Shown piece after piece: positions 1 to 48,369 of a stretch of DNA of 64,000 nt (position 1 is the first letter of the stretch; each line of letters opens with the position of its first letter). Below the pieces are notes generated by a model. It was given only the letters and a program-made list of their open reading frames with translations, made no database searches and had not been told where the DNA came from. The translations under genes were made by a program, and so were the position numbers. Source of the DNA: Escherichia coli. GTDB taxonomy: Bacteria > Pseudomonadota > Gammaproteobacteria > Enterobacterales > Enterobacteriaceae. Location of the stretch: the NCBI RefSeq assembly GCF_003790525.1, contig NZ_CP033635.1; one strand, written 5' to 3'.

Positions 1-473
1 ATGAAGTGCGTCTGGTGTTAGCACCTGACCATCCACTGGCGGCAAAAACGCGAATTACACCGGAAGATCTCGCCAGCGAGACGCTGTTGATTTATCCGGT
101 GCAGCGTAGCCGACTGGATGTCTGGCGGCATTTTCTTCAGCCAGCAGGCGTCAGCCCGTCACTGAAAAGCGTCGATAACACCTTATTGTTGATTCAGATG
201 GTTGCCGCACGGATGGGTATTGCCGCACTACCGCATTGGGTAGTGGAGAGTTTTGAACGCCAGGGTCTGGTGGTCACCAAAACCCTGGGCGAAGGCTTGT
301 GGAGCCGACTGTACGCCGCCGTGCGCGATGGCGAGCAGCGTCAGCCGATTACAGAAGCGTTTATTCGTTCAGCGCGCAATCACGCCTGCGATCATCTGCC
401 GTTTGTGAAGAGCGCGGAGCGACCCACTTACGATGCACCCACAGTGAGGCCAGGATCACCAGCGCGCCTGTAA
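1..473 (+). CDS. metR: LysR-family regulator MetR, C-terminal part (5' end lies outside the window)
   Basis: ORF 6..473 is in frame to the window edge; translation ends ...[31 protein letters not shown], recognised as the MetR C-terminus; synteny next to yigM. Confidence 0.88.
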
Positions 474-26133: not shown

Positions 26134-27330
26134 ATGCTAAAAGTGTTATTGCTCTTTGTTTTGCTGATTGCGGGGATCGTGGTTGGCCCGATGATTGCCG
26201 GTCATCAGGGGTACGTATTGATTCAGACCGACAACTACAATATCGAAACCAGCGTCACTGGCCTCGCGATTATTTTGATTCTGGCGATGGTAGTGCTGTT
26301 TGCCATTGAGTGGCTACTGCGGCGGATCTTCCGCACAGGCGCGCACACCCGTGGGTGGTTTGTCGGACGTAAGCGTCGCCGTGCCCGTAAGCAGACCGAA
26401 CAGGCGCTGCTGAAACTAGCGGAAGGCGATTATCAGCAAGTTGAAAAGCTGATGGCGAAAAATGCCGATCACGCTGAACAACCGGTGGTGAACTATCTGC
26501 TGGCTGCCGAAGCCGCGCAACAACGCGGTGATGAAGCACGCGCCAACCAACATCTGGAACGCGCAGCGGAGCTGGCCGGCAACGACACAATTCCGGTAGA
26601 AATCACCCGTGTACGTCTGCAACTGGCCCGTAATGAAAACCATGCTGCACGCCACGGCGTGGATAAGCTGCTGGAAGTTACGCCACGCCATCCGGAAGTA
26701 TTACGTCTGGCGGAACAGGCGTATATCCGCACTGGTGCATGGAGTTCGCTGCTGGATATCATCCCATCAATGGCGAAAGCCCACGTTGGCGATGAAGAAC
26801 ATCGTGCAATGCTGGAACAACAGGCATGGATTGGCCTGATGGATCAGGCGCGTGCCGATAACGGTAGCGAAGGTTTGCGTAACTGGTGGAAAAACCAAAG
26901 CCGGAAAACGCGTCATCAGGTGGCGTTACAGGTGGCAATGGCGGAACACCTTATTGAGTGTGATGACCATGACACCGCCCAGCAAATTATCATCGACGGC
27001 CTGAAACGCCAGTATGACGATCGCCTGCTGCTGCCGATCCCGCGTCTGAAAACCAATAACCCGGAACAGCTGGAAAAAGTGCTGCGCCAACAGATCAAAA
27101 ACGTGGGCGATCGCCCGTTGTTGTGGAGCACACTGGGTCAGTCGCTGATGAAGCACGGCGAATGGCAGGAAGCATCGCTCGCCTTCCGCGCGGCGCTGAA
27201 ACAACGTCCGGACGCCTACGATTACGCATGGCTTGCCGACGCGCTGGACAGACTGCACAAACCGGAAGAAGCCGCAGCGATGCGTCGCGATGGCTTGATG
27301 CTGACCTTACAGAATAACCCGTCACAGTAG
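26134..27330 (+). CDS. hemY: HemY (TPR-containing membrane protein of the hem operon)
   Basis: 398-aa ORF with two N-terminal TM segments, 2 nt after the hemX stop. Confidence 0.9.
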   Translation: MLKVLLLFVLLIAGIVVGPMIAGHQGYVLIQTDNYNIETSVTGLAIILILAMVVLFAIEWLLRRIFRTGAHTRGWFVGRKRRRARKQTEQALLKLAEGDYQQVEKLMAKNADHAEQPVVNYLLAAEAAQQRGDEARANQHLERAAELAGNDTIPVEITRVRLQLARNENHAARHGVDKLLEVTPRHPEVLRLAEQAYIRTGAWSSLLDIIPSMAKAHVGDEEHRAMLEQQAWIGLMDQARADNGSEGLRNWWKNQSRKTRHQVALQVAMAEHLIECDDHDTAQQIIIDGLKRQYDDRLLLPIPRLKTNNPEQLEKVLRQQIKNVGDRPLLWSTLGQSLMKHGEWQEASLAFRAALKQRPDAYDYAWLADALDRLHKPEEAAAMRRDGLMLTLQNNPSQ

Positions 27331-27377
27331 TTCTTTCTCACCCGGAGGCAAGCACCTCCGGGACCTTTCTGATACAT

Positions 27378-27584
27378 AAAAAAACGCCTGCTCTTATTAC
27401 GGAGCAGGCGTTAAAACAGGTCTGTATGACAACAAGTGGGTGCTTCACTCAACGTTGTGTCCATGGTGTCTGATGAGGCATAAGCGACATCTGTCAGTGG
27501 ACGATAAGCACCGTAAACGGCTCTGCGTCATTCCGGAGTTTATGAGGCACTAAGGCGAACATAAGAGATGGAATGAGCATCTAC
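27378..27584 (-). ncRNA. glmZ: Small RNA GlmZ (activator of glmS translation)
   Basis: Minus strand begins GTAGATGCTCATTCCATCTCTTATGTTCGCC and ends with the hairpin AACGCCTGCTCCGTAATAAGAGCAGGCGTTTTTTT, matching the GlmZ sequence as I recall it; located between hemY and aslA. Confidence 0.85.
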
Positions 27585-27993
27585 TCGTTTATTATGCCAC
27601 AGAGAACCGGGAAATAACATCCCTTAACACTTGTTATGAGATAATTCTGTAATCCTCTTTGCTTCCTGAGTGAATATTTCTCCTGCGCACGATTCTACAC
27701 ATATATATAATGAATAATAAAATTCATTCAATTAATAACATATATATTAATTGCCGTTAAAACTAAAAACAGCATCAATAATCAACGCGATATAACATCA
27801 CCGCCTTACATATCACCTGCGCCAGAGGTAGGATTGAAAACGCTCTCCTGATTTTCCAATTCATTTTCTGGATAAATAAATAATTTATTTTTATCACTAT
27901 TATTTATGCAATCATCCTGTCAGGGAGAGGGATCTCAATTATCAATGCTTAATTACGTCAACATTTTGACGACATGAAACCGGAGCATTTTGC

Positions 27994-29649
27994 ATGGAAT
28001 TTTCGTTTTCACCCAAACTTCTTGTTGTAGCTGTCGCCGCCGCTCTTCCACTCATGGCCAACGCAGCAGATACCCCGTCAACCGCCACCGCACGCAAAGG
28101 CTTTGCCGGATACGATCACCCAAACCAGTATCTGGTTAAACCGGCGACCACTATTGCCGACAACATGATGCCGGTGATGCAGCATCCTGCACAAGACAAA
28201 GAAACCCAGCAGAAGCTGGCAGAACTTGAGAAAAAAACCGGTAAGAAACCGAACGTGGTTGTTTTCTTGCTGGATGATGTGGGCTGGATGGATGTTGGCT
28301 TTAACGGCGGCGGCGTGGCGGTGGGTAACCCTACACCAGATATCGACGCCGTTGCCAGCCAGGGGCTGATTTTAACTTCGGCGTATTCTCAACCGAGTTC
28401 TTCCCCAACCCGCGCCACGATTCTTACCGGACAATACTCCATCCACCACGGCATTCTGATGCCGCCAATGTACGGGCAACCGGGCGGTCTGCAAGGGTTA
28501 ACCACTCTGCCGCAGTTGCTGCACGATCAGGGCTACGTCACTCAGGCCATCGGGAAATGGCATATGGGGGAAAACAAAGAGTCGCAGCCGCAGAACGTTG
28601 GCTTTGATGATTTCCGCGGCTTTAACTCGGTATCCGATATGTATACCGAATGGCGTGATGTTCACGTCAACCCGGAAGTCGCCCTGAGCCCGGATCGTTC
28701 TGAATACATCCAAAAACTGCCGTTCAGCAAAGATGACGTTCATGCCGTGCGCGGCGGTGAACAGGAAGCCATTGCCGACATTACGCCGAAATATATGGAA
28801 GACCTGGATCAACGCTGGATGGAATATGGCGTTAAGTTCCTCGACAAGATGGCGAAGAGCGATAAGCCTTTCTTCCTCTACTACTGCACTCGCGGCTGTC
28901 ACTTCGATAACTACCCAAATGCGAAATATGCGGGTAGCTCTCCGGCGCGCACCTCTTACGGCGACTGCATGGTGGAGATGAACGATATCTTCGCCAATCT
29001 GTATAAAGCACTGGAGAAAAACGGTCAGCTTGATAACACGCTGATTGTGTTCACCTCTGATAACGGTCCGGAAGCCGAAGTTCCGCCGCACGGTCGCACG
29101 CCGTTCCGCGGTGCGAAAGGTTCTACATGGGAAGGCGGCGTTCGTGTGCCAACCTTCGTTTACTGGAAAGGCATGATCCAACCGCGTAAATCTGACGGCA
29201 TTGTCGATCTGGCGGATCTCTTCCCTACGGCGCTGGATCTGGCGGGGCATCCTGGGGCGAAGGTAGCGAATTTAGTACCGAAAACCACCTTTATCGATGG
29301 TGTGGACCAGACATCTTTCTTCCTGGGAACAAATGGTCAGTCTAACCGTAAGGCCGAGCACTACTTCCTCAACGGTAAACTTTCTGCTGTGCGTATGGAT
29401 GAGTTCAAGTATCACGTCCTGATCCAGCAACCGTACGCGTATACCCAGAGCGGGTATCAGGGTGGATTCACCGGCACAGTAATGCAAACGGCGGGATCGT
29501 CGGTGTTTAACCTGTACACCGATCCGCAGGAAAGCGACTCCATCGGCGTGCGCCATATTCCGATGGGTGTACCGCTACAGACCGAAATGCACGCGTATAT
29601 GGAGATCCTGAAAAAATATCCACCACGCGCGCAGATTAAATCTGACTAA
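27994..29649 (+). CDS. aslA: Arylsulfatase-family protein AslA
   Basis: 551-aa ORF with signal peptide and a sulfatase-type CxPxR-like motif ([11 protein letters not shown]). Confidence 0.9.
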
Positions 29650-31188: not shown

Positions 31189-31265
31189 TGGTCGGCGAGA
31201 GAGGATTCGAACCTCCGACCCACTGGTCCCAAACCAGTTGCGCTACCAAGCTGCGCTACTCGCCG
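31189..31265 (-). tRNA. proM: tRNA-Pro (anticodon UGG)
   Basis: Minus strand CGGCGAGTAGCGCAGCTTGGTAGCGCAACTGGTTTGGGACCAGTGGGTCGGAGGTTCGAATCCTCTCTCGCCGACCA; cloverleaf with anticodon TGG and encoded CCA. Confidence 0.95.
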
Positions 31266-31307
31266 AAATACTGCTTTTTGAATTTTTAGTTCAATTCTTT
31301 AAAGTCG

Positions 31308-31394
31308 TGGTGCGAGGGGGGGGACTTGAACCCCCACGTCCGTAAGGACACTAACACCTGAAGCTAGCGCGTCTACCAATTCCGCCACCTTCGC
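31308..31394 (-). tRNA. leuT: tRNA-Leu (anticodon CAG)
   Basis: Minus strand GCGAAGGTGGCGGAATTGGTAGACGCGCTAGCTTCAGGTGTTAG...CTCGCACCA; long variable arm, anticodon CAG. Confidence 0.95.
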
Positions 31395-31414
31395 ATTGTC
31401 ACAACTTCTAATAA

Positions 31415-31491
31415 TGGGGTGGCTAATGGGATTCGAACCCACGACAACTGGAATCACAATCCAGGGCTCTACCAACTGAGCTATAGCCACC
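31415..31491 (-). tRNA. hisR: tRNA-His (anticodon GUG)
   Basis: Minus strand GGTGGCTATAGCTCAGTTGGTAGAGCCCTGGATTGTGATTCCAG...GCCACCCCA; includes the extra 5' G typical of tRNA-His. Confidence 0.95.
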
Positions 31492-31548
31492 ACTACAAAT
31501 CTTGTTACGCGGTATTACTACCACCGCAGCTCAAGCGCCGGGACTAAA

Positions 31549-31625
<77 letters not shown>

Positions 31626-47909: not shown

Positions 47910-48239
47910 TTACGCCAGGTTAGCGTCGAGGAACTCTTTCAACTGACCTTTAGACAGTGCGCCCACTTTGGTTGCCGCCACTTCACCGTTTTTGAACAGC
48001 AGCAGAGTCGGGATACCACGGATGCCATATTTCGGCGCAGTGCCAGGGTTTTGATCGATGTTCAGTTTTGCAACGGTCAGTTTGCCCTGATATTCGTCAG
48101 CGATTTCATCCAGAATCGGGGCGATCATTTTGCACGGACCGCACCACTCTGCCCAGAAATCAACGAGGATCGCCCCGTCCGCTTTGAGTACATCCGTGTC
48201 AAAACTGTCGTCAGTCAGGTGAATAATTTTATCGCTCAT
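47910..48239 (-). CDS. trxA: Thioredoxin 1
   Basis: ORF trimmed to [37 protein letters not shown] (109 aa, active site CGPC). Confidence 0.95.
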
Positions 48240-48369
48240 ATATAACTCCACAGGAATAAGCCTGGCGTGTTGGTTTCGTTGTTGGTGTAACATTAACCAA
48301 CTAAAGGTTGACTTTATTTCACCGGATACGCTTTCGTAAAGCAATAGTAAGCTGATATTCTACCACACT

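Follow-up and report, generated by a model that had tools for sequence, protein, structure and literature searches.

What, if anything, is encoded on the minus strand in the interval between hemY and aslA? An earlier note, made from the letters of the window (the whole 64-kb stretch of DNA analysed here), had read a 207-nt segment of this interval as the sRNA GlmZ, closed at its 3' end by a terminator hairpin, and had named a covariance-model scan as the test that could refute this reading and an alignment to K-12 glmZ as a further check. To the first point, Rfam 15 was searched with cmscan against the whole window, and RF00083 (GlmZ_SraJ) was returned on the minus strand at the same coordinates as the note had given, with a score of 218.4 bits (3.6x the gathering score of 60) and E = 3.4e-56. 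The match is untruncated and spans model positions 1-214 of 214, with the 5' G at 27584 and the 3' U-tail finishing at 27378; the published length of the primary GlmZ transcript is 207 nt (PMC4152352). A low-threshold Rfam scan of 27200..28100 gave, besides GlmZ, two chance-level matches only (E = 0.23). The alignment to K-12, described below, agrees over the full length of the segment. We are therefore nearly certain that it is glmZ, encoding the Hfq-dependent 207-nt sRNA GlmZ of E. coli, and no observation made in the analysis speaks against this. This is a gene already known, found here in its ordinary E. coli context, and nothing about it is new. Its parts and its neighbours are listed in Table 1.

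Table 1. Features of the glmZ locus in window coordinates, with the strand and the basis of each assignment (nt, position in the GlmZ transcript).
Feature	Position	Strand	Basis
glmZ gene; primary transcript GlmZ (= SraJ), 207 nt	27378..27584	-	RF00083 and K-12 identity
Likely sigma-70 -35, ATGTTA at -36..-31, 3/6 matches to TTGACA, 18-bp spacer	27615..27620	-	read by hand
Likely sigma-70 -10, extended, CATAAT at -12..-7 after TGG at -15..-13 (TGGCATAAT)	27591..27599	-	read by hand
SL1, nt 6-61	27524..27579	-	RNAalifold, 93 sequences; Rfam consensus structure agrees
SL2, nt 73-146, with lateral bulge, includes A125 and A127	27439..27512	-	RNAalifold and covariation
SSR, 26 nt, nt 147-172, CACUUGUUGUCAUACAGACCUGUUUU	27413..27438	-	RNAalifold; literature match
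Mini-hairpin in linker, 3 bp, nt 155-165			RNAalifold
glmS-pairing (anti-antisense) site, nt 149-170	27415..27436	-	accessibility-corrected scan
Predicted RNase E cleavage site within SSR, ~nt 151	~27434	-	literature on K-12 RNA
Predicted Hfq-binding region within SSR	27413..27438	-	literature on K-12 RNA
SL3 intrinsic terminator (stem 27412..27383; nt 174-201 in RNAalifold) and oligo-U tail (27382..27378)	27378..27412	-	terminator scan
hemY	26134..27330	+	annotated in SMS-3-5
aslA	27994..29649	+	annotated in SMS-3-5

GlmZ has a homologue, GlmY, with which it shares the SL1/SL2 architecture, and the covariance-model match has to be weighed against the reading that the segment is this paralogous decoy sRNA of clan CL00011, which sequesters RapZ instead of pairing with glmS. 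Two observations speak for that reading: cmscan removed a lower-scoring overlapping match of the same clan, and a GlmY-like sequence from another species (locus L051, described below) also fits the search pattern that we derived from GlmZ. The clan competition was nevertheless won by GlmZ_SraJ with 218 bits, and the sequence is that of K-12 glmZ, unlike that of K-12 glmY, which is found between purL and glrK, whereas the locus here is hemY-aslA. The segment also carries a 26-nt SSR with complementarity to glmS, as against an SSR of 12 nt with none in GlmY. With the clan winner, the locus and the SSR all differing from what GlmY (RF00128) has, this identity was rejected, and we give it a negligible probability; the segment is read as GlmZ from here on.

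Aligned with K-12 MG1655, the segment shows no mismatch over its 207 nt (100% identity), beginning at the 5' end annotated for glmZ (3986432, corresponding to window 27584) and finishing with the final T of the terminator tail; of the 54 bases aligned upstream of the gene, 53 also agree. In the aligned stretch the differences from K-12 lie at window 27607, 27368 and 27363; the first is position -23 in the promoter spacer (G here, A in K-12), and the other two are substitutions just past the glmZ terminator and before the hairpin on the hemY side. The alignment also contains a 3-nt end gap where the extracted pieces fail to overlap. Over the wider stretch 27000..28300, E. coli SMS-3-5 and at least 14 further complete genomes have exactly the same sequence (100% identity). 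Across complete E. coli genomes the 207 nt are present at ≥ 99% identity in 5424 of 5426, and the median copy number is one. The flanking 1.3 kb reach merely 90-95% identity in most of these genomes, against 99-100% for the 207 nt, which indicates that glmZ is under far stronger constraint than its flanks.

The gene lies where the earlier note had placed it, on the minus strand between hemY and aslA, both of which run on the plus strand. Between the GlmZ 3' end and the stop codon of hemY, which is read from the other strand, there are 47 nt; the two genes are convergent, and a convergent hemY was found in 72 of the 92 homologous loci that we collected (median gap 76 nt); an aslA homologue was present in 4 of the 92 only. 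This agrees with the published description, in which glmZ clusters with hemCDXY and the upstream side is variable (PMC3045617), and the position convergent to the hemCDXY cluster that is typical of the GlmZ family is thus seen here. On the aslA side, the region that had been described as very AT-rich (27600..27993) is indeed so, with a GC content of 0.28-0.37 over 27600..27999 and of 0.48-0.62 in the flanks. On the hemY side, a perfect 8-bp G+C-rich hairpin (CCCGGAGG-CAAGCA-CCTCCGGG) is found on the plus strand at 27341..27362, 11 nt past the hemY stop codon. Its T tract is weak and it was missed by the terminator scan, but it is probably the hemY terminator, placed back to back with that of glmZ.

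This arrangement bears on a second alternative, namely that there is no independent gene here and that the segment is either part of hemY, as a structured 3' region or a terminator for both directions, or a regulatory part upstream of aslA, with the covariance-model match reflecting a decayed relic. The convergent distance to hemY is short, and the terminator hairpin could in principle also halt read-through from that gene. However, hemY has a hairpin of its own (above), the match to the family is full-length and untruncated, and experiments have established the promoter, the transcript and the function of the K-12 gene with which the sequence agrees at 100% (PMC4152352, PMC3045617). The identity of 99-100% across 5424 genomes, set against 90-95% in the flanks, speaks of a strong constraint that is unlike a relic. 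We regard this alternative as very improbable, and an intact glmZ as the proper description.

Records of the locus are incomplete. In the RefSeq annotation of SMS-3-5, which has the identical sequence, hemY and aslA are the sole features annotated here, and no feature was found under the match in any of 12 sampled E. coli genomes. The description of the gene as invisible to ORF-based annotation therefore holds for SMS-3-5 and for these 12 genomes. In K-12 (NC_000913.3), the glmZ feature runs from 3986432 to 3986603, which is 172 nt and ends 35 nt short of the end of the terminator and U-tail; the discrepancy between 172 and 207 nt is a difference of annotation, since the sequence is the same. 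The practical value of the present result is accordingly one of annotation, with PGAP RefSeq records omitting glmZ (SMS-3-5 and the sampled genomes) and the K-12 feature being too short. For a gene that is missing or shortened in the records, recovery with exact boundaries by the scan makes a useful positive control.

Other RNA features were recorded elsewhere in the window. At 63319..63608 (-), the Rfam family 'Rev39_5p_UTR' was matched with 159.6 bits; the matched stretch contains a 32-codon ORF at 63439..63537 (-), MTALLRVISLVVISVVVIIIPPCGAALGRGKA, which is followed by a strong terminator. We take this ORF to be the ilvL leader peptide, and on this assumption its succession by a strong terminator would make the match the ilvGMEDA attenuator under another family name. 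A TrxA 5' UTR thermometer was matched at 48210..48309 (-) with 78.8 bits (gathering score: 58). Four tRNA genes are clustered at 31189..31625 (-), namely Arg(ccg), His(gtg), Leu(cag) and Pro(tgg), in an order that corresponds to that of the argX-hisR-leuT-proM operon.

The structure of the RNA was assessed from the window sequence and its homologues. GlmZ folds 3.3 sd below dinucleotide shuffles of its sequence. Homologues were sought in one genome per species by means of a motif conserved in the 3' strand of SL2, which gave 120 pattern matches. Of these, 24 were dropped as chance matches that did not carry the conserved GlmZ 5' motif (those with titles listed were from outside Enterobacterales), and 4 more were dropped at contig edges. 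What remained was a set of 92 distinct sequences whose 5' end is GlmZ-like (Enterobacterales: Escherichia, Salmonella, Citrobacter, Enterobacter, Serratia, Yersinia, Pectobacterium, Providencia, Proteus, Morganella and other genera); these were aligned together with the window sequence, giving 93 in total. RNAalifold, supplied with no prior structure, recovered SL1, SL2, the mini-hairpin and SL3 from this alignment. Of the alignment cells in the predicted pairs, 99.7% are paired; sliding the 3' partners by 1-3 columns lowers this to 32-41%. Compensatory changes occur in 14 pairs, and the covariation score was reached by 0 of 500 shuffles.

Covariation was seen in each of the three stem-loops. 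In SL1, pairs 32:89 (UA 79 / CG 14) and 33:88 (CG 89 / UA 4) covary, and in SL3 compensatory changes across species were found in 7 of the 9 pairs called by RNAalifold. In SL2, pairs 117:198 (UA 55 / CG 38) and 123:182 (UA 68 / UG 18 / CG 7) covary, although part of its 3' strand is invariant by ascertainment, being fixed as the search pattern, and within that part two free positions alone are informative; the strongest SL2 covariation (UA 55 / CG 38) falls at one of these two. The three-stem-loop architecture of GlmZ_SraJ is thus present in the window with covariation behind it, subject in SL2 to the part of the 3' strand set by the search pattern. One pattern match, locus L051 (9556..9799, Erwinia endophytica), resembles GlmY, with AGTGGCTCATTCACC at the 5' end and a different linker and terminator. 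That a GlmY-like sequence fits the pattern indicates that the SL2 3' strand is conserved between the paralogues GlmZ and GlmY.

The published features of the RNA can be placed on this structure. The terminator hairpin that the earlier note had pointed out was called by the terminator scan as a stem of 11 bp, 7 of them G-C, with a T-run behind it, so that the intrinsic terminator and 3' oligo-U tail of the family are both in place. Such a tail is an Hfq-binding determinant in the literature (PMC4737144), and the same role is predicted for it here. The SSR is unpaired in the RNAalifold consensus save for the 3-bp mini-hairpin, and its extent in the window agrees with the published 26 nt between SL2 and SL3 (PMC4737144). 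SL1 and SL2 are the RapZ-binding stem-loops (PMC9841335), SL2 serving as the recognition module for RapZ and RNase E (PMC4737144, PMC9841335); the window sequence has both A125 and A127, the RapZ contacts of the cryo-EM structure (PMC9841335).

The same alignment speaks to a third alternative, that the segment encodes a small protein on either strand. Five mechanical ORFs of 26-37 codons do overlap it, but the longest of them reaches no more than 37 codons, the indels in the cross-species alignment are not multiples of three, and the substitutions track base pairs rather than codons. As the RNA model fully accounts for the conservation, a coding function has a vanishingly small probability in our assessment, and GlmZ is retained as a structured RNA.

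We then asked where this RNA could pair with glmS, which is ~73 kb away and outside the window. The glmU-glmS intergenic region was taken as a stand-in from SMS-3-5, whose sequence does not differ from that of the window where the two were compared; the last 109 nt of this region before the glmS start codon are the same as in K-12. Every 26-nt window of GlmZ was scanned against every 26-nt window of the glmS UTR, with opening energies added. The top-ranked interaction joins GlmZ nt 149-170 to glmS -41..-21 (hybridisation: -19.2 kcal/mol; total: -8.9 kcal/mol) through two helices, formed by UUGUUGUC and GACCUGU on the GlmZ side with GACAACGA and ACAGGUU on that of the glmS 5' UTR. GlmY, scanned against the glmS UTR as a control, reached -5.1 at best, with trivial matches of 4-7 bp. 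The windowed scan reproduces the published, mutationally verified GlmZ-pairing site on glmS (-41..-19; PMC4152352), and the SSR of ~26 nt complementary to the glmS 5' UTR that characterises GlmZ_SraJ is found here. RNAduplex, applied to the entire GlmZ against the whole glmS UTR, returned uninformative long-range duplexes, and shuffled sequences outscored the real one. The processed form of GlmZ is reported to be ~151 nt long (PMC4152352).

For E. coli glmZ, one constitutive sigma-70 promoter has been described, contained within -40, with the sequence upstream of that position dispensable; a -10 mutation abolishes expression, and three bases of the -35 agree with the consensus (PMC3045617). 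The hexamers in Table 1 are the likely counterparts, assigned from the sequence together with this published mapping. Owing to its weak -35, the promoter escaped a generic sigma-70 scan. A search of 27585..27993 for the GlrR site (TGTC-N10-GACA, ≤ 1 mismatch) returned none, and a search of the same interval for a sigma-54 promoter returned no credible site; a sigma-54-like candidate at 27907..27922 had two mismatches, its GG absent, and occurred at chance frequency, and was rejected. The predicted promoter, judged by sequence, is therefore of the Escherichia type, a single sigma-70 promoter within -40 with neither GlrR nor sigma-54 sites. The G at -23 might alter the constitutive GlmZ level in this lineage, or there might be trans targets other than glmS in this strain, for GlmZ or for the processed form of 151 nt. 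We consider both improbable, and the sequence gives no pointer to an altered level or to extra targets.

GlmZ is a textbook activating sRNA that is controlled by regulated decay, through the RapZ adaptor, RNase E and the GlmY decoy. Through it the supply of cell-envelope precursors is tied to the synthesis of GlmS, and it influences how resistant the cell intrinsically is to GlmS inhibitors. The steps proposed for this locus are those of published experiments on the identical K-12 sequence, transferred by the 100% identity. On this basis glmZ would be transcribed constitutively, and Hfq would bind the U-tail and the SSR of the RNA. Full-length GlmZ with Hfq would pair with the glmS mRNA from -41 to -19 (PMC4152352), and this pairing would open the hairpin that sequesters the RBS, so that GlmS (glucosamine-6-phosphate synthase) would be translated and the glmS mRNA stabilised. 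When glucosamine-6-phosphate is ample, the RapZ tetramer would bind SL1 and SL2 and offer the SSR to RNase E, whose cut at ~nt 151 would remove the pairing site (PMC4737144, PMC4152352, PMC9841335). When it is scarce, the homologous decoy sRNA GlmY would sequester RapZ and GlmZ would be spared. We infer both the RapZ-dependent cleavage at ~nt 151 and the Hfq-dependent activation of glmS from the identity with K-12. The gene for the partner sRNA, glmY, was found in 5425 of 5426 E. coli genomes.

Among known systems, GlmZ of Salmonella, Yersinia and most other Enterobacterales has the same fold, keeps the GUC...GACCUG pairing core and shows the same hemY synteny. It differs in being driven by sigma-54 and GlrR, alone or from a promoter overlapping a sigma-70 promoter (PMC3045617), whereas the window glmZ, which has neither TGTC-N10-GACA nor a sigma-54 promoter up to aslA, is of the Escherichia/Klebsiella type. 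Yersinia GlmZ (six sequences in the alignment) carries in addition an insertion of ~15 nt in the apical loop of SL1. In Providencia, Proteus, Morganella and Moellerella (eight alignment rows and others), GlmZ does not have the UGUU of the first glmS-pairing helix and its linker is longer (GACCUGAUUGU...), so that the pairing with glmS may be arranged differently in these genera. GlmY resembles GlmZ in the SL1 and SL2 that bind RapZ, in its terminator SL3 and in belonging to the same regulatory circuit. It differs, beyond its locus and its SSR, in that RapZ/RNase E leave it uncleaved and in its role as a protein decoy (PMC4737144), and the window sequence shows no such GlmY traits. The closest counterpart is GlmZ (SraJ) of E. 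coli K-12 (gene b4456, RF00083), which differs from the window by the one promoter-spacer substitution and the two just beyond the terminator, and which agrees with it in all 207 nt, in the terminator and the glmS-pairing site, in the promoter region, and in its position, with hemY downstream in convergent and aslA upstream in divergent orientation.
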